Below are positions 19,316 to 45,932 of a stretch of 64,000 bases of DNA, in pieces. The notes beneath the pieces are model-generated. The model did not search any database, was not told where the DNA came from, and worked only from the letters and a program-made list of their open reading frames with translations. The first letter of the stretch is position 1. Each line of letters starts with the position of its first letter. This stretch comes from an uncultured Stenotrophomonas sp. (GTDB lineage Bacteria > Pseudomonadota > Gammaproteobacteria > Xanthomonadales > Xanthomonadaceae): NCBI RefSeq assembly GCF_913775725.1, contig NZ_CAJYNG010000014.1, one strand, 5' to 3'. Both the position numbers and the translations under genes were made by a program.

Positions 19316-21270
19316 GCACGACGGCGCCGCTGCTGCGCCTGCGCGACCTGCGACGCGAATTCCCGGCCGGCGACGATGTGATCGCCGTGCTGCGTGACGT
19401 CAATCTCGACATCCACGCCGGTGAGATGGTGGCCATCGTCGGCCAGTCCGGCTCGGGCAAGTCGACGCTGATGAACATCCTCGGCTGCCTCGATCGTCCC
19501 ACCCGTGGCAGCTACCAGGTGGCCGGCCGCGAAACCGGGAAGATGGAGCCGGACGAGCTGGCCGAACTGCGTCGCGAGCATTTCGGCTTCATCTTCCAGC
19601 GCTACCACCTGCTGGGCGACCTGGATGCGCGCGGCAACGTGGAAGTACCGGCGGTGTATGCCGGCAGCCCGGGCGCAGTGCGCAACGCGCGTGCCGAGCA
19701 GCTGCTGCAGCGGCTTGGCCTGAGCGACCGCATGCACCACAAGCCAGGCCAACTGTCCGGTGGCCAGCAGCAGCGCGTGTCGATCGCACGTGCCCTGATG
19801 AACGGCGGCGAGGTGATCCTGGCCGACGAACCGACCGGCGCGCTCGACACGAAATCCGGCGAGGAAGTGATGGCGATCCTCGGCGAGCTGCACGCCGAAG
19901 GCCACACCATCATCATCGTCACCCACGACATGAGCGTTGCCGAGCATGCGCAGCGCATCATCGAGATCCGCGATGGCGAGATCATCGCCGACCGCGCCAA
20001 CCCGAACGCACCTTCCTACCGCGCGCAGCGCGAGGCCAGTACCGGCGTTGCCCACGGCAACAGCTGGCGGGCCGCGCGCGACCGCTTCACCGAAGCGTTC
20101 CGCATGGCGCTGCTGGCGATGAACGCACATCGGCTGCGCACCTTCCTGACCATGCTCGGCATCATCATCGGCATTGCCTCGGTGGTCTCGGTGGTGGCGC
20201 TGGGCAATGGCTCGCAGCAGCAGATCCTGCAGAACATCAGCGCGCTCGGCACCAACACCATCGACGTCTATCCGGGCCGTGGTTTCGGCGACATGCGCTC
20301 GGCGCGGGTACAGACGCTCAAGGCCAGCGATGCCGATGCACTGGCAAAGCAGAGCTACGTGGACAGCGCCACCCCCAGCGTGTCGACCTCGGTCACGGCC
20401 CGCTACCGCAACCAGTCCTCCACCGCCCAGGTCAGCGGCGTTGGCGAGCAGTTCTTCCGGGTCAAGGGCGTGACCCTGCTCAGCGGCAGCTTCTTCGATA
20501 GCGATGCGGTGAAGGGCCTGGGCCAGGTGGCGGTGATCGACGAGAACACCCAGACCCAGTTCTTCCCCGATGTCGATCCGGTCGGCCAGGTGATCCTGCT
20601 CGGCAACGTGCCGGCGCGCGTGGTCGGCGTGGCCAAGCGCCAGAGTTTCGGCTTCGGCGGCAGCACCAGCCTCAGCGTGTGGGTGCCGTACACCACGGTG
20701 ATGTCGCGCATGCTCGGCCAGAGCCACGTCTCCAGCATCACCGTGCGCGTGGACGACGACACGCCGATGGATGCCGCACAGGAAGCGATCACCCGACTGT
20801 TGACGATGCGCCATGGCACCGAGGACTTCTTCCTCAGCAACAGCGCCGAGATCCGCGAGACCATCGAGCAGACCACGCGCACGATGACCCTGCTGATCGG
20901 GGCCATCGCCGCGATCGCGCTGCTGGTCGGTGGCATCGGTGTGATGAACATCATGCTGGTGTCGGTGACCGAGCGCACCCGCGAGATCGGCGTGCGCATG
21001 GCCGTGGGTGCACGGCAAAGTGATATCCGCCAGCAGTTCCTGATCGAAGCGGTGCTGGTGTGCCTGCTCGGTGGCCTGCTCGGCATCGGCCTGGCCCTGC
21101 TGCTGGGCTCGATGATCGGCCGCCTCGCCAGCGACTTCCAGGTGCTGTTCTCCACCGCCTCGATCGTTGCCGCCTTCGCCTGCTCCACCCTGATCGGCGT
21201 GGCGTTCGGCTTCCTGCCCGCGCGCAACGCCGCGCAGCTCGACCCGGTGGAGGCCCTGGCCCGCGAATGA
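19312..21270 (+). CDS. macB: MacB-type ABC transporter (N-terminal ATPase fused to 4-TM FtsX-like permease with periplasmic domain)
   Basis: Walker [10 protein letters not shown], signature [14 protein letters not shown], Walker [12 protein letters not shown], and a C-terminal FtsX-type permease ...[14 protein letters not shown]... Confidence 0.92.
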
Positions 21271-22709
21271 AGATGATGATGACCCGACTGCCCTTCCCCG
21301 CTCCCTCGCGCCTGCTGCTGGCGGGCGCCGTTCTGCTCGCCCTGTCCGGCTGCGCATCGGTGGGCCGCTACCCGGTGCAGGATCCCAGCGTGGCGGCCAG
21401 CTACGGGCGTGGCGACGCCACCCTCAATGCACCCTCCGACGACCCGCGCAGCAGCCTGGATACTCCGGGCCGCGACATCCGCCAGGACACCTGGTGGACC
21501 GGTTTCGGCGATGAGCGTCTCGACCGCCTGGTGGCGCAGGCGCTGGCCGCCAACAGCGATCTGGCCGCCGCCGGCCTGGCCGTGCAGCGTTCGCGCCTGC
21601 AGGCCGGCCTGGCCAGCAATGCGCTGTGGCCGCAGCCCTCGTCTTCGGGCGTGAGCGGCAGCGCCAGCCGCGCCACCGACCAGTCTGATGATTGGCGTCG
21701 CAGCTATTCCACAGGCGTGTCGCTGGGTTGGGAGGTCGATCTGTGGGGCCGCCTGCGCACCCAGCGCGACATCGCCCGCTGGGAAGCCGAGGCCAGCGAA
21801 GAAGACCGGCAGAACACCGCGTTGCTGGTGATCGGCGACACCATCACCCAGTACTGGAACCTGGCCTATCTCAACCAGTCGATCGCCACCGGCCAGGCCA
21901 ACCTGGAGCGGCTGGAGCGCACCCGCGAACTGGTGCAGGCCCGCTTCGACGCCGGTGCGGTATCGCGCCTGGAAGTCCGCCAGGCACTGCAGAACCTGCA
22001 ATCGCAGCGTTCCTCGCAGAGCGCACTGGAACAGCAGCGGGTGGAGGTGCGCAATGCACTGGCCGTGCTGCTGGACGGCACGCCCTGGCCGCAGCAGGAC
22101 GAACCGCAGGACCTGCTGGCCGCACGCAGCCCCGGCATCAACGAAGGGCTGCCGACCGACCTGCTCGGCCGCCGTCCCGACCTGCGCGCGGCCGAACTGC
22201 GCCTGCGCAACAGCCTGAAGACGATCAAGGTCACCGCCACCCAGTACTACCCGGCGTTGAGCCTGACCGGCAGCCTCGGCTCCAGTGCAACCTCGCTGGG
22301 CGATGTGCTGCGCAACCCGGTGACCACGCTGGGCGCCGGCCTGTCATTGCCGTTCCTCAACCTGCAGCGCGCGCAGCTGGATACCGACATCGCCGGTACG
22401 GCGTACCAGATTGCTGCAACCAACTTCCGCAAGACGCTGTACACCGCGCTCTCGGAAGTGGACAACGCGCTGTCGGCACGTGAGCAGCTGGCGCGCCAGG
22501 TGGCGGCCTCGCAGGCTTCGTATGACGAAGCGGTGGAAGTGGAGCGCGCGCAGGAAGTGCGTTACCGCGTGGGTGCCACCGACCTGCGCACCTGGCTGGA
22601 AGCGCAGCAGACCCGGCATGATGCCGAGCTGTCGCTGGCACGCGTGCGCCAGGGCCAGCTGAACAACGACGTGACCCTGTTCAAGGCACTGGGCGGCAGC
22701 GCGGGCTGA
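21267..22709 (+). CDS. outer-membrane efflux lipoprotein, NodT/OprM family (third gene of the mac operon)
   Basis: ATG 21267 overlaps the macB stop (ATGA). Lipobox LALSGC. Two OEP repeats are present. From memory, this three-gene layout corresponds to the macABC operon described in S. maltophilia. Confidence 0.88.
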
Positions 22710-22780
22710 GGCGATGCGGGGCTGCGCCCCGCACCCGCCGAAACAACGTCAACGTCAACAACGGGGCATTCCGCTGAATG

Positions 22781-41776: not shown

Positions 41777-43468
41777 CTACGCCAACGCCTGCTCATGCAC
41801 GCCGGCAATCGCACGGCCGGACGGATCGGCCGCAGCGGCGAAACTGGCATCCCACGCGATCGCCGCTGGCGACGAACAGGCGATCGACTTGCCGCCCGGC
41901 ACGGTCTCGGCCGCCGCGCGGCTCGGGAAGAACTGTTCGAACAGATGGCGGTAGTAGTACGCCTCCTTGGTCTGCGGCGGGTTGTGCGGGAAGCGCTTGT
42001 CGGCGGCCGCCAGCACGCGATCACTGACCTGCGCCTCGGCGTGCGCCTTCAGCCCGTCGATCCAGCCATAGCCGACGCCGTCGCTGAACTGCTCCTTCTG
42101 CCGCCACAGGATGCTGTCCGGCAGGTAGCCATCGAACGCCTCGCGCAGCACCGCCTTCTCGATGCGGCGACCACCAAAGCCGGCGCCGACCATCTTGTGC
42201 GCGGCATCGAAGCGCATCGCCACATCGAGGAATTCACGGTCCAGGAACGGTACGCGCGGCTCCACGCCCCAGGCCATCATCGACTTGTTGGCACGCAGGC
42301 AGTCGTAGTTGTGCAGGGCGTCGAGCTTGCGCACCAGCTCGTCGTGGAATTCACGCGCATCCGGCGCCTTGTGGAAGTACAGGTAGCCACCGAAGATCTC
42401 GTCGCTGCCCTCGCCGGACAGCACCATCTTCACGCCCATCGCCTTGATCCGCCTTGCCAGCAGGAACATCGGCGTCGATGCGCGGATGGTGGTGACGTCG
42501 TAGGTCTCGATGTGGCGGATCACTTCCGGCAACGCGTCGAGGCCTTCCTCGAAGGTGTATTCGAAGCCGTGATGCACGGTGCCGAGCGCCTCGGCAGCGA
42601 CCGCCGCGGCCGCCAGATCGGGCGAGCCCTTCAGGCCGATCGCGAACGAGTGCAGACGCGGCCACCAGGCTTCGGTCTGCCCACCATCCTCGATGCGGCG
42701 ACGCGCGTAGCGTGCGGCAACTGCCGCCACCAGCGATGAATCGAGGCCACCGGACAGCAGCACGCCATACGGCACATCGCTCATCAGCTGGCGTTCCACC
42801 GCGTGCTCGAACGCCTGGCGCAGCTCGGCCAGATCGGCCTGGCGGCCCTGTACGTCGGCATAGTCGCGCCACGGTTGCTGGTAGTAGCGCACCAGCTCAC
42901 CGCTGGCACTGTCGAAGTAGTGGCCCGGCGGAAACTGCGCGACGTCGGCACAGGTATCGACCAGTGCTTTCATTTCCGAGGCCACGCGCAGGCGCCCCTG
43001 GGCATCGTGGCCCCAGTACAGCGGCACCACACCGACCGGGTCGCGCGCCACCAGCACGCGTCCACTCTCACGGTCCCACAACGCGAAGGCGAAGATGCCG
43101 TTGAGCTGTTCCAGCCACTGCGCCGGCGAGCCGCCCTGGCGGTACAGCGCGTTGATCACCTCGCAGTCCGAGCCGGTCTGGAAGTCATAGGCGGTGGTCA
43201 GCGCCGCCTTCAATGCCTGATGGTTGTAGATCTCGCCGTTCACTGCCAGCGCCAGCTGGCCATCGGCCGACAGCAGCGGCTGCGAACCACCGGCCGGGTC
43301 GACGATGGCCAGCCGCTCGTGGACCAGCAGCGCACCTTCGTCGAGGTACACGCCGCTCCAGTCCGGGCCACGGTGGCGCTGGCGCTGCGACAGTTCCAGC
43401 GCATGGCGGCGCAGGGCCGGAAGATCGTCACCGGCCTGCAGGCCGAAGATTCCGAAGATCGAACACAT
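41777..43468 (-). CDS. asnB: asparagine synthetase B (glutamine-hydrolysing)
   Basis: Start at M33 of the tracked ORF (ATG 43468, AGGAG RBS). It has the N-terminal nucleophile MCSIFGIFG and the SGGLDSS PP-loop. The length is 563 aa. Confidence 0.93.
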   Translation of the reverse strand: MCSIFGIFGLQAGDDLPALRRHALELSQRQRHRGPDWSGVYLDEGALLVHERLAIVDPAGGSQPLLSADGQLALAVNGEIYNHQALKAALTTAYDFQTGSDCEVINALYRQGGSPAQWLEQLNGIFAFALWDRESGRVLVARDPVGVVPLYWGHDAQGRLRVASEMKALVDTCADVAQFPPGHYFDSASGELVRYYQQPWRDYADVQGRQADLAELRQAFEHAVERQLMSDVPYGVLLSGGLDSSLVAAVAARYARRRIEDGGQTEAWWPRLHSFAIGLKGSPDLAAAAVAAEALGTVHHGFEYTFEEGLDALPEVIRHIETYDVTTIRASTPMFLLARRIKAMGVKMVLSGEGSDEIFGGYLYFHKAPDAREFHDELVRKLDALHNYDCLRANKSMMAWGVEPRVPFLDREFLDVAMRFDAAHKMVGAGFGGRRIEKAVLREAFDGYLPDSILWRQKEQFSDGVGYGWIDGLKAHAEAQVSDRVLAAADKRFPHNPPQTKEAYYYRHLFEQFFPSRAAAETVPGGKSIACSSPAAIAWDASFAAAADPSGRAIAGVHEQALA

Positions 43469-43550
43469 GGGGGAGCTCCTGTTGGGGAATTTCACGGGTG
43501 GGAAGGTGTTCGACCGGCCATCCAGGCCCGGGTGGGCTGCGCCCGGGCAC

Positions 43551-43578
43551 AAAAAAACCCGCATCGGCTGATGCGGGT
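43551..43578 (-). terminator. intrinsic terminator in the asnB 5' leader (attenuator terminator)
   Basis: The minus strand reads ACCCGCAUC-AGCC-GAUGCGGGU followed by U7. It lies 82 nt upstream of the asnB ATG, and no upstream minus-strand gene exists for it to terminate. Confidence 0.8.
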
Positions 43579-43606
43579 TTTCTGGTGTCCGGGCGTGTGT
43601 TGCTGT

Positions 43607-43708
43607 CTATCTACCCAGGGCGCAGTCCCGCATCGGCCGCGCACGATTATTCGCGCGCAGATTATTGCGGTTGTTGTTATTGACGGCGGTGGCCAGGCGG
43701 ATCGACAT
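43607..43708 (-). CDS. candidate asnB leader peptide, 33 codons, 8 Asn codons (MSIRLATAVNNNNRNNLRANNRARPMRDCALGR)
   Basis: ATG 43708 to TAG 43607-43609. Eight of codons 10-21 are AAU/AAC. The ORF ends 28 nt before the terminator and contains the antiterminator arm. The SD is weak (tagggtcgatgccATG). Confidence 0.6.
   Translation of the reverse strand: MSIRLATAVNNNNRNNLRANNRARPMRDCALGR
43626..43638 (-). promoter_or_regulatory. candidate antiterminator arm (direct repeat of terminator 3' arm)
   Basis: The minus strand GGCCGAUGCGGGA repeats the terminator loop plus 3' arm (GCCGAUGCGGG). It can therefore pair with the terminator 5' arm CCCGCAUC-A-GCC (8+3 bp). Confidence 0.6.
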
Positions 43709-43805
43709 GGCATCGACCCTACCCCGGTTTCCGGCGCGGTGCAACAGTTGCGTCAGCAACCACGCCTGGGGCGCATAATGGCGCGCCCTGAACCGTGTAA
43801 CAGGA

Positions 43806-44684
43806 ATGCAACACCGCAATGGACGCACCGGGGCACTGGCCGCCCTGCTCTGCCTGGGCCTGGTGGCCTGCCAGACCCTGCCCCCGCCTTCTACGCTGCC
43901 GCAGTCCCAGCAGCAGGCATTGGAACAACGCGGAACCGACGGCAGCTTCGAAGGTGCCTTTGATACTGCGGAGACCTTCGAACGCTTCAACGATCCGCGC
44001 GCCATCGCCTACTACGAGCGTGCCGCAGCGGTCACCCCCTGGACCTTCCACAACACCAAGGCGGAAGAAGCACTGGGCAGGATCTGGATCTCCGGCGCGC
44101 TGCGCCATGCCGACAGCCCCCACATCAACCCGGCACCGGTGCTGCGCGCATCCTGGCGACGTGGCGAACGCGCCTATCTGGCAGCTGCCAACCAGGGCAA
44201 TCCCTATGCGTTCTTCGGGCTCGCCAAGGCCTATCGTCAGCGTGGCGACGCGCAACAGGCGCTGCGCTGGGACCTGCGCGGAATGATCTACGAGCGCTAC
44301 CCGAGTTCATCGTCACGGCTACCGGATGCGGTGGCCGCACAGGGTGACACCGTGCATCCGCTGGTTGCGCAGATCCAGCGTCGCGCCGAACGTGGCGATG
44401 CCGAAGCGCAGGTGGACCTGGGCGCACTGCTGGAGAAAGGCATGGGACTGCCGCGCGATCCGGCGCGTGCGCTGCAGCTGTACCAGCGCGCCGGTGAGAA
44501 GGGCAATGTGTTCGGCCAGTACTTCGCCGGGCTGCTGCTGGGCCGCAGTGCGCCAGGGGTGGAGAAGGACACCGAGGCCGCGGCACGCTGGTTTGCCAAG
44601 GCCGAGGCGCAGCACTTCTACATGGCCGCGCCGAGTTACTGGAAGAAGGCGGTCGAGCCGCCGTTCTTCATTTTTTCAGAGTAG
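43806..44684 (+). CDS. Sel1-repeat (TPR-like) lipoprotein
   Basis: Lipobox LGLVAC. It carries Sel1 repeats (e.g. AEAQVDLGALLEKGMGLPRDPARALQLYQRAGEKGNVFGQYFAGLLL). The TAG stop lies inside a SMAG repeat. Confidence 0.8.
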   Translation: MQHRNGRTGALAALLCLGLVACQTLPPPSTLPQSQQQALEQRGTDGSFEGAFDTAETFERFNDPRAIAYYERAAAVTPWTFHNTKAEEALGRIWISGALRHADSPHINPAPVLRASWRRGERAYLAAANQGNPYAFFGLAKAYRQRGDAQQALRWDLRGMIYERYPSSSSRLPDAVAAQGDTVHPLVAQIQRRAERGDAEAQVDLGALLEKGMGLPRDPARALQLYQRAGEKGNVFGQYFAGLLLGRSAPGVEKDTEAAARWFAKAEAQHFYMAAPSYWKKAVEPPFFIFSE

Positions 44685-44804: not shown

Positions 44805-45932
44805 TCACGCCAGCAGCCGTTCCACCAGGCGCTGGTACAGCCCCGGCAACGCGTCCAGATCGTCCACGCGCACGTTCTCGTCCACCTGATGGATGCTGGC
44901 GTTGACCGGCCCCACTTCGATGCACTGCGCACCCAGCGGCGCGATGAAGCGTGCATCGGACGTGCCGCCGCCGGTGCTTTCTTCCGGGGCACGGCCGATG
45001 TGCTCGGCCAGCACCGCACGCGCGGTGGCGCGCAGCGTGCCTTCCGGGGTGTAGAACGGCTCGCCGCTGCGGTGCCACTTCAGCGTGTACTGCAGGTCAT
45101 GCCGGTCCAGCAGTGCGGCGATCTCCGCCTCCAGCTTCGGCGCGTCCCAGTGCGGGTTGTAGCGGATGTTGAAATCCACTTCGAGCTCGCCGGGAATCAC
45201 GTTGTTGGCACCGGTGCCGGCGTGGATGTTGGAGACCTGCAGGCTGGTCGGCGGGAAACTCTCGTAGCCTTCGTCCCAGCGCCGCGCGCTCAGTTCGGCC
45301 AGGGCCGGAGCGGCCTGGTGAATCGGGTTGCGTGCTTTCTCCGGATACGCCACGTGGCCCTGCACGCCCTGCACGCGCAGCTTGGCCGACAGGCTGCCAC
45401 GACGTCCCACGCGCAGCAGGTCGCCCAGGATCGCGGTCGATGACGGCTCGCCGGTGATGCACCAGTCGATGCGCTGGCCGCGCTCGGCGAACAGGCGCGC
45501 GACGTGGCGCACGCCATCGATGGCGTCGCCTTCCTCGTCGCTGGTCAGCAGCACCGCCAGCGTACCGGGGTGATCGGGATGCGCGGCGACGAACTGCTCG
45601 GCGGCGACCACGAACGCGGCCACGCTGCCCTTCATGTCGGCGGCGCCACGCCCATACAGCACGCCATCGCGGATCTGCGGCGTGAACGGGTCGCTGGTCC
45701 AGGCCTCGCGCGGACCCGTCGGCACCACGTCGGTATGGCCCAGCAGTACCAGTACCGGCGCGCCATGGCCGTGGGTCGCCCACAGGTTGTCGACGTCGCC
45801 CAGGCGAAGGTGATCGCACTGGAACCCGGCCTGCTTCAGGCGTGCCGCCAGCAGTGCCTGGCAGCCGGCATCATCCGGCGTCACCGAGCGTCGTGCGATC
45901 AGTTCGCAGGTCAGGTCGAGGACTGCGCTCAT
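44805..45932 (-). CDS. dapE: succinyl-diaminopimelate desuccinylase
   Basis: 375-aa M20 peptidase. It has [18 protein letters not shown] and SDEEG. Its start overlaps the stop of the arsC-family gene (ATGA). Confidence 0.92.

Follow-up and report, generated by a model that had tools for sequence, protein, structure and literature searches.

A putative asparagine-keyed transcription attenuator in the asnB leader of Stenotrophomonas and other Lysobacterales

Contig NZ_CAJYNG010000014.1 of an uncultured Stenotrophomonas sp. (assembly GCF_913775725.1) contributes the 64,000 nucleotide (nt) stretch analysed here, which we refer to as the window and which carries on its minus strand asnB, the gene for asparagine synthetase B (AsnB). 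The source organism belongs to the S. maltophilia complex, with an AsnB protein 99% identical to that of strain AOUS-28640 (locus L001; loci in our comparisons carry L numbers). AsnB scores 867.7 bits on the asparagine synthase B equivalog model NF006949 (cut-off 499) and 132.7 bits on the lasso-cyclase model NF033535, far under the cut-off of 525, and judged by these profiles the gene product is a genuine housekeeping asparagine synthetase B. Between asnB and the next gene lies a leader region that contains, in order of presumed transcription, a promoter-like element, a 33-codon open reading frame (ORF) rich in asparagine codons, a set of alternative RNA helices and an intrinsic terminator (Table 1), and that folds with a z score of −6.3 against shuffled sequences. 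In this report, we present the evidence that the leader is very probably a ribosome-mediated, leader-peptide transcription attenuator that couples asnB expression to the supply of charged tRNA-Asn.

The leader ORF is found where an earlier note on this DNA, made from the sequence alone, had placed it: it ends 28 nt before the terminator stem, and asparagine is specified by eight of its codons 10 to 21 (codons 10–13, 15–16 and 20–21). The same note had singled out the AT-rich asparagine run as conspicuous, and it is indeed the densest 12-codon stretch for asparagine in all six frames of the 64 kb, with eight such codons against five in the next unrelated stretch. That second stretch (22739–22777, plus strand; RNNVNVNNGAFR followed by a stop codon; 5/12 Asn) was considered as a leader and rejected: it has no in-frame start codon and directly follows a terminator-like hairpin that ends the gene for an efflux outer-membrane protein (21060–22709). 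Comparison with relatives indicates that the leader ORF is read as codons. In an alignment of 27 Xanthomonas-type leaders (A2), all 31 gap runs within the ORF are multiples of three, compared with 15 of 102 past the stop codon. Codon 20 specifies asparagine in 27/27 rows (18 AAT, 9 AAC), codon 21 in 26/27 and codon 15 in 24/27, with AAT and AAC exchanging for one another at asparagine positions and the amino acid being kept. Across all leaders, asparagine makes up 19.6% of the leader-peptide residues as against 1.2% of those of AsnB, and the rare AAT codon accounts for 47% of asparagine codons in the leaders but 15% of those in the asnB genes alongside (p = 9e-31); attenuator leaders are known for a biased choice of regulatory codon (PMC1183508). 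Taken together, these patterns argue strongly for coding constraint on the leader ORF, the support that they lend to its translation being indirect but strong.

Table 1 Positions of asnB and of the predicted elements of its leader in the window (ΔG, folding free energy; SD, Shine–Dalgarno)
Feature	Coordinates	Strand	Remarks
asnB, glutamine-hydrolysing asparagine synthetase B, 563 amino acids (aa), putatively regulated gene	41777..43468	minus	NCBIfam NF006949 equivalog
SD motif AGGAG of asnB	43476..43480	minus	
Terminator loop AGCC (43569–43566); region 4, 3′ arm GAUGCGGGU (43565–43557); U7 (43557–43551)	43551..43569	minus	ΔG −19.7 kcal/mol
Region 3, terminator 5′ arm ACCCGCAUC	43570..43578	minus	A–U pairs can lengthen the stem to 43583
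Lower antiterminator stem-loop: CUG (43625–43623) with CAG (43584–43582); CUGGGU (43618–43613) with GCCCGG (43594–43589)	43582..43625	minus	Minimum free energy fold of the nascent transcript
Leader ORF, 33 codons plus TAG, MSIRLATAVNNNNRNNLRANNRARPMRDCALGR	43607..43708	minus	ATG 43708–43706, TAG 43609–43607; no SD motif
Region 2, antiterminator arm GGCCGAUGCGGG, codons 24–28	43627..43638	minus	Predicted to pair with the terminator 5′ arm and loop
Inner hairpin CUGCGCGCGA-AUAA-UCGUGCGCGG	43637..43660	minus	Asn codons 20–21 at the tip; ΔG −16.1; candidate pause hairpin
Control region, 8 Asn among 12 codons (5 AAT, 3 AAC)	43646..43681	minus	Highest Asn density in the window
Region 1, CCGCA within Asn13-Arg14-Asn15	43666..43670	minus	Pairs with UGCGG 43632–43628 (arm 2 core) in the RNAalifold consensus
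−10-like box TAGGGT	43716..43721	minus	17 nt past the −35 box, 7 nt before the leader ATG
−35-like box TTGCAC, leader promoter	43739..43744	minus	TTGC invariant in alignment A1

A translated leader need not be specific for asparagine. Its asparagine codons could be incidental AT-rich spacers in a translation-coupled attenuator in which any slowdown of translation, whether through starvation, antibiotics or a signal linked to guanosine tetraphosphate (ppGpp), raises read-through. Antibiotic-sensing leader ORFs of the same architecture are known, and the asparagine run is largely unstructured in the predicted folds of the window and of most Xanthomonas-type leaders. Codons for lysine (AAA/AAG), isoleucine, phenylalanine and tyrosine would make equally good spacers, yet it is asparagine that is retained, in up to 27 of 27 rows and with synonymous AAT/AAC changes only; moreover, the enrichment extends to every clade and the downstream gene makes asparagine. 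We consider a non-specific attenuator of this kind unlikely.

Outside the asparagine cluster, which persists, the N-terminal part, length and C-terminus of the leader peptide vary freely among clades, and the conserved C-terminal “residues” follow the RNA sequence of the terminator. These features bear on another idea, that the short ORF encodes a functional peptide, either the precursor of a ribosomally synthesised and post-translationally modified peptide (a lasso peptide, for instance) that an AsnB-like enzyme would process, or a small protein with a regulatory role, with the hairpin ending its transcript. Precursor ORFs lie next to the genes of lasso-peptide cyclases, which are homologues of AsnB, and gene callers do sometimes call the leader ORF: a protein homologue search, in which the query was the leader peptide lengthened in frame to 44 aa, found 55 clusters, the ORF being annotated as “hypothetical protein” where it is called. 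Drift at both ends of the peptide speaks against such a product, with C-terminal residues that track the terminator RNA, as do the profile scores that mark AsnB as a housekeeping enzyme (868 bits, against 133 for the lasso-cyclase model) and on which we rejected a lasso-peptide precursor. In addition, no B-protease or transporter gene is seen adjoining asnB in the window, and searches of Pfam and NCBIfam with the leader peptides matched no model. A functional peptide thus appears very unlikely. The database “hypothetical proteins” of 47–77 aa are probably over-extended calls of the leader ORF. In the window, the leader frame is open in the 5′ direction as far as an ATG at 44005, creating a spurious 132-aa ORF (43607–44005, minus strand) antisense to the neighbouring Sel1-repeat gene.

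The strong intrinsic terminator that the earlier note had described at 43551–43578 on the minus strand is present there, with 82 nt separating its U-run from the asnB ATG (43468). An outer helix lengthens the hairpin (43551–43594, minus strand), pairing CGCCCGG..CAC..AGAAAA with UUUUUU..GUG..CCCGGGCG, so that the U-tract is able to pair with an upstream A-rich run; it is because A–U pairs carry the stem into the U-run that a simple terminator scan missed the hairpin. The possibility that the hairpin might be one more copy of a dispersed repeat is refuted for the window, where it is single-copy. The upstream neighbour is the Sel1-repeat gene (43806–44684; PF08238), which lies on the plus strand, so that no minus-strand gene in the window ends at the hairpin, just as had been claimed.

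To place these features in a comparative setting, the best 80 asnB loci were collected, one genome per GTDB species and all from or near Lysobacterales; one contig was too short to judge, leaving 79 evaluable loci. The layout of a short asparagine-rich ORF followed by a terminator is kept in 75 of the 79. It is complete in 73, and two contigs that end within the leader (L009 and L037) retain the 3′ part of the leader and the terminator. Conservation of the ORF and its asparagine run in relatives, which the earlier note had proposed as a check, is thus borne out. The genera concerned are Stenotrophomonas, Xanthomonas, Pseudoxanthomonas, Luteimonas, Thermomonas, Lysobacter, Rhodanobacter, Dyella, Frateuria and Fulvimonas. 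The asparagine cluster takes the form NNNNRNNLRANNRARPMR in the first four of these, NRNRNNRG..RARLRARA in Thermomonas, NNNNRNNASLPRAGD in Lysobacter, NNNNRANNNANRWRARA in Rhodanobacter and LNNNANNNNRNRGRAGV in Dyella. In all 73 complete loci a G+C-rich stem of 9–14 base pairs (bp) is followed by a U-run, termination being predicted from sequence, and the stem starts 20–36 nt past the leader stop codon.

The gene upstream of the element varies and may be dapE on the same strand, a Sel1-repeat gene on the opposite strand or some other gene. Since the element is kept whatever lies upstream, the hairpin is not simply the terminator of the upstream gene. The comparative data thereby already contradict a further explanation, in which the hairpin terminates dapE transcripts or insulates divergent genes and the asparagine-rich ORF arose by chance. 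Some loci do lend themselves to it: in Pseudoxanthomonas and in some Stenotrophomonas and Xanthomonas, a same-strand dapE ends 40–130 nt before the leader ATG, and the hairpin could end dapE transcripts too. However, the window and many other loci have no co-directional upstream gene, and the ORF, the asparagine run, the restriction of indels to multiples of three, the promoter–ATG spacing and the spacing between arm 2 and the stop codon are kept in every context. Eight asparagine codons in 12 are also beyond chance, the maximum elsewhere in the window being five. We regard this explanation as extremely unlikely. As to the neighbourhood itself, asnB is accompanied in the window by the Sel1-repeat gene, an M20 peptidase gene (DapE-like) and a penicillin amidase gene. 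In the window, L001 and L024, dapE (44805–45932, minus strand) is separated from the asnB leader by the Sel1-repeat gene; in other genomes of the S. maltophilia complex (L002–L004 were compared) that gene is missing and dapE lies directly 5′ of the leader, a presence/absence polymorphism.

The 3′ end of the leader ORF holds arm 2 of the putative antiterminator. As the earlier note had recognised, GGCCGAUGCGGG repeats the terminator loop and 3′ arm and can form, with the 5′ arm, a helix of 8 bp, a single mismatch and 3 more bp that is mutually exclusive with the terminator; in close relatives with a GGCC loop, this pairing is a perfect 12 bp. In the predicted fold of the window, the leader stop codon sits in the apical loop of the antiterminator stem-loop, and the whole 2:3 stem-loop has a ΔG of −28.1 kcal/mol. 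The best partner of the terminator 5′ arm is the 3′ end of the ORF, at p ≤ 0.05 against shuffles in 45 of the 73 complete loci. In most lineages, 6–8 nt separate the end of arm 2 from the leader stop codon, and in nearly every lineage outside Stenotrophomonas the GCGGG core ends exactly 8 nt short of the stop; in the window strain, 17 nt separate the core from the stop codon.

The terminator 5′ arm differs among clades. It reads ACCCGCAUC in Xanthomonas-type loci, GCCCGC(G/C)(C/U)C in Thermomonas, GCCCGCGC or GCCCGCACU in most Lysobacter loci (GGCCUGCACU in L034 and L040) and GGCCCGC in Rhodanobacteraceae. The antiterminator partner follows these changes, as GAUGCGGG, GCGGGC or GGCGGGCC. To quantify this, sequence blocks were anchored solely on the GCGGG and CCCGC cores and their flanks then examined. 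Flanks from the same locus pair better than permuted ones (3.09 pairs against 2.00 ± 0.21; 0/5000 permutations). Among 47 distinct blocks, 67.6% of cells are paired, compared with 27–41% in slid registers, and both sides change in 10 of the 14 pairs. Compensatory cells number 59, compared with 38 ± 4.3 in shuffles, none of 500 of which reaches that count, and the covariation score of 0.188 compares with 0.109 in shuffles (0/500 reach it) and at most 0.087 in slid versions. At columns 5/28, for example, GC occurs 16 times and UA 16 times, and at columns 11/22 CG occurs 25 times and UA 8 times. Columns 8/25 have GC 45 times and AU twice, the AU cases being L034 and L040, which read GCAGG:CCUGC where other loci read GCGGG:CCCGC. 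The search for compensatory changes across relatives that the earlier note had called for therefore came out in favour of the antiterminator, the arms of which co-vary among clades. Independently of this, RNAalifold recovered the antiterminator from Rhodanobacteraceae RNAs cut before arm 4, together with part of another helix, which takes in the stop codon and is analogous to the lower stem of the window.

A further feature looked for in an attenuator is a 1:2 hairpin overlapping the regulatory codons, with a role in pausing or as an anti-antiterminator. The earlier note had proposed codons 3–6 as an anti-antiterminator; this part of the ORF is unconserved in relatives, and we rejected it in favour of the conserved pairing CCGCA:UGCGG with its enclosed inner hairpin. 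CCGCA:UGCGG is kept in 25–27 of 27 Xanthomonas-type sequences. The inner hairpin, with asparagine codons 20–21 in its loop, had also been noticed, correctly as to its presence and not as to its length, the actual stem being longer (43660–43637). The pair at columns 58/69 of this hairpin varies (GU, AU, GC, CG), and we suggest that it may act as a pause hairpin. In the window, the whole 1:2 structure has a ΔG of −23.6 kcal/mol; across the Xanthomonas-type and Thermomonas clades the helix ranges from −17 to −31 kcal/mol, with z between −2 and −6 in most. In Lysobacter, Rhodanobacter, Dyella and Frateuria, a small hairpin joins the 5′ half of arm 2 to the region of the last asparagine codon.

How the leader ORF might be translated is suggested by the region 5′ to it. 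Of the 73 loci, 70 have TTGC at a distance of 35–37 nt upstream of an in-frame leader ATG, as against 4.7% of control ATGs. In alignment A1, the invariant TTGC and a TAnnnT box are followed by an invariant CCATG. TAnnnT is conserved in the Xanthomonas-type clade, with CAGGAT, TCTAGT or TCAAGT at the same position elsewhere; the strict TAnnnT pattern fits just 33 of 73 loci, and the −10-like hexamer ends 6–7 nt before the ATG across clades. A simple promoter scan of the window found no sigma-70 consensus promoter at the leader. An SD-like motif precedes 8 of 70 leaders compared with 62 of 70 asnB genes. Given the placement of the −35-like and −10-like boxes, the transcript is expected to begin at or beside the AUG, and a 70S ribosome would be able to load as soon as that AUG emerges. 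The leader ORF thus appears to be translated from a leaderless transcript, which is plausible because leaderless mRNAs have been reported in Xanthomonas, where 14% of mRNAs are leaderless and 82% of those begin with AUG (PMC3300014), and because leaderless leaders have been reported in Deinococcus deserti (see below).

The −35-like box is also the last of three half-sites in alternating orientation, GTTGC-TGAC-GCAAC-T-GTTGC (43741..43760, minus strand), which are conserved in A1 among the rows from Stenotrophomonas, Xanthomonas and Luteimonas. Where dapE is directly upstream, the first half-site overlaps its stop codon. A DNA-binding regulator could possibly use these inverted repeats as its operator, in addition to attenuation, or they may be left over from the 3′ end of dapE, and it is uncertain whether they are part of the element.

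We modelled the effect of ribosome position by folding. The nascent RNA was folded as far as the terminator loop, that is, cut before arm 4, with a 28-nt ribosome footprint masked. With the A-site on the asparagine codons, all clades tested favour the antiterminator. Placing the ribosome at the stop codon abolishes it in L016, L047 and L062 and, less clearly, in L033, L021, L042 and L060. In a second model, the ribosome was treated as a barrier that no helix may enclose, which is an assumption on our part. Applied to the window, this model pairs 8 of the 9 nt of arm 3 with arm 2 when the A-site is on any of the eight asparagine codons. From codon 24 onwards, arm 3 is largely unpaired (2–3 of 9 nt), and once the ribosome has reached the stop codon, helix 1:2 forms again in its wake. 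The window ORF is three codons longer than that of Xanthomonas (ending …DCALGR rather than …VCD before the stop codon), so that a terminating ribosome would stand between arms 2 and 3 and leave arm 2 uncovered. It would be by standing there that the ribosome blocks the 2:3 pairing in this strain.

On this basis, the following mechanism can be proposed. Transcription would start within 0–2 nt of the leader AUG, and a 70S ribosome would load on the 5′-terminal AUG as it emerges. When Asn-tRNA is scarce, the ribosome would stall on one of the eight asparagine codons, keeping region 1 and the inner hairpin open and arm 2 free. Arm 2 would then pair with the newly made arm 3, no terminator would form and RNA polymerase would read through into asnB. 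When Asn-tRNA is plentiful, the ribosome would pass arm 2 and reach the stop codon. In most lineages, the terminating ribosome would sit directly on arm 2; in the Stenotrophomonas examined here, it would stand between arms 2 and 3, with arm 2 pairing once more with region 1 behind it. In either case, arm 3 would be free to pair with arm 4, and transcription would stop at the U7 tract to give a leader RNA of ~155 nt. More speculatively, the excess of AAU codons could make read-through depend also on queuosine modification of tRNA-Asn. We infer where transcription starts, that it terminates within the leader in vivo and that it responds to asparagine.

The four features that lend themselves to computational assessment in an attenuator (an asparagine-rich ORF, a terminator, a co-varying antiterminator and the appropriate geometry) are found in the window and at 75 of 79 loci, and the suggestion in the earlier note of an asparagine-keyed attenuator of asnB with trp/his-type logic is supported on both sequence and comparative grounds. 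A number of observations weigh against it. The element is absent at 4 of the 79 evaluable loci (L045, L049, L057 and L076). At 28 of 73 loci, the antiterminator helix is short (5–7 bp) and individually non-significant, and the covariation reflects a few clade-level events among non-independent sequences, which makes it supportive rather than overwhelming. The 1:2 structure of Lysobacter, Rhodanobacter, Dyella and Frateuria is a small hairpin of −5 to −12 kcal/mol that is non-significant against shuffles. Folding of the full-length leader at equilibrium, with ribosome masks, always gives the terminator, and it follows that the switch would be purely kinetic and unprovable by folding. In L079, the simple mask model leaves the antiterminator in place when the ribosome is at the stop codon. 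The cut window RNA, when free of ribosomes, is predicted to prefer the antiterminator (P = 0.86), and thus the untranslated state may differ from the super-attenuation of trp. Finally, that the charging of tRNA-Asn would report on free asparagine presupposes an asparaginyl-tRNA synthetase (AsnRS), the presence of which we assume here. With these points taken into account, our confidence that the leader is an asparagine-responsive attenuator of asnB remains high.

Among the four loci that lack the element, in L076, a Luteimonas metagenome-assembled genome, asnB begins 50 nt past dapE, and in L049 it begins ~20 nt past another gene. L045 (Dokdonella) has three ~50-nt tandem repeats where the leader would be. 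L049 and L057 are labelled as Holophagales and Rhodococcus, respectively, which is odd given that their AsnB proteins are 75–80% identical to the Stenotrophomonas protein.

Firmicutes possess Asn-specific T-box leaders that sense the charging of tRNA-Asn and choose between terminator and antiterminator upstream of asparagine-related genes. A T-box binds uncharged tRNA directly and has no need of translation, whereas the asnB leader is proposed to depend on it; the T-box model gave no Rfam match in the leader even at E ≤ 10. In E. coli, asnA is controlled by AsnC, a DNA-binding protein. Control of asparagine synthetase in that organism resembles the present case in enzyme family and physiological goal and differs in that asnA is regulated through a DNA-binding protein. 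Upstream of E. coli asnB (L081, included as an outgroup), an asparagine-rich leader ORF was not found. A weak hairpin, GCUGC-UUU-GCGGC followed by AT7, lies ~50 nt before the E. coli asnB ATG.

Leader peptides on leaderless transcripts occur in Corynebacterium also. They have been described with mapped transcription start sites in Deinococcus deserti, at or 1 nt before the leader AUG and ahead of genes for amino acid biosynthesis or tRNA synthetases (PMC4007540). D. deserti belongs to another phylum, the main text of the paper names cysteine and tryptophan as the amino acids, and its start sites are mapped, whereas the leaderless start of the asnB leader is deduced from promoter geometry.

The closest parallels are the enterobacterial attenuators of trp, his, leu, thr, ilvGMEDA and ilvBN, as well as pheA (PMC1183508). 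In common with these, the asnB leader has a short leader ORF rich in codons for the end product and with a biased choice of regulatory codon, regions 1:2, 2:3 and 3:4 whose predicted pairings are mutually exclusive (1:2 being strong in the Xanthomonas-type and Thermomonas clades), an intrinsic terminator before the first structural gene and an outcome that would be decided by the position of the ribosome. With eight regulatory codons in 12, it is nearer to the his, leu and pheA type, where such codons are many, than to trp, which has two. It differs from them in being keyed to asparagine, outside the described classes; in controlling a single gene rather than an operon; in lacking an SD motif, with an apparent start at the 5′ end of the transcript; in having arm 2 inside the ORF, 5′ of the stop codon; and in its 1:2 helix, which is weak in several clades. 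Sequence homology with the enterobacterial leaders is absent. Coverage by an existing Rfam model, which the earlier note had left to be checked, was not found: no family reached its gathering score, the nearest being Thr_leader (RF00506; 22.8 bits against 55) and Leu_leader (RF00512; 20.0 against 50), both of which match the terminator hairpin only. Likewise, no asparagine leader peptide or asnB attenuator was found in the searchable full-text literature.

On its sequence features, the asnB leader is most probably a new amino-acid variant of ribosome-mediated attenuation, what is new being the amino acid specificity and the target gene. On balance, we favour the wider view that it represents an undescribed class of attenuator and the first to be keyed to asparagine, expressed from a leaderless transcript with no SD motif and ancestral for asnB control throughout the Lysobacterales, a group that includes Stenotrophomonas maltophilia and the plant-pathogenic Xanthomonas. 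To our knowledge, the amino acids served by ribosome-mediated attenuators (trp, his, leu, thr, ilv, phe) have remained much the same for decades, and an asparagine-specific example would bring an amide amino acid and a single-gene target within the reach of the mechanism. The ~75 loci, with their differing arms, stop codon positions and 1:2 strengths, form a set of natural variants in which attenuator geometry could be related to basal level and sensitivity, and the apparent leaderless start offers a route to the study of how transcription and translation are synchronised without SD-led initiation. The leader ORF, which is currently missed or annotated as a hypothetical protein, could found an Rfam or NCBIfam family. 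In Xanthomonas oryzae pv. oryzicola, virulence and resistance to oxidative stress have been tied to AsnB (Qian et al. 2013, cited in PMC13054055), and the attenuator proposed here would give asnB a concrete and testable mode of regulation in bacteria that matter in the clinic and in agriculture.

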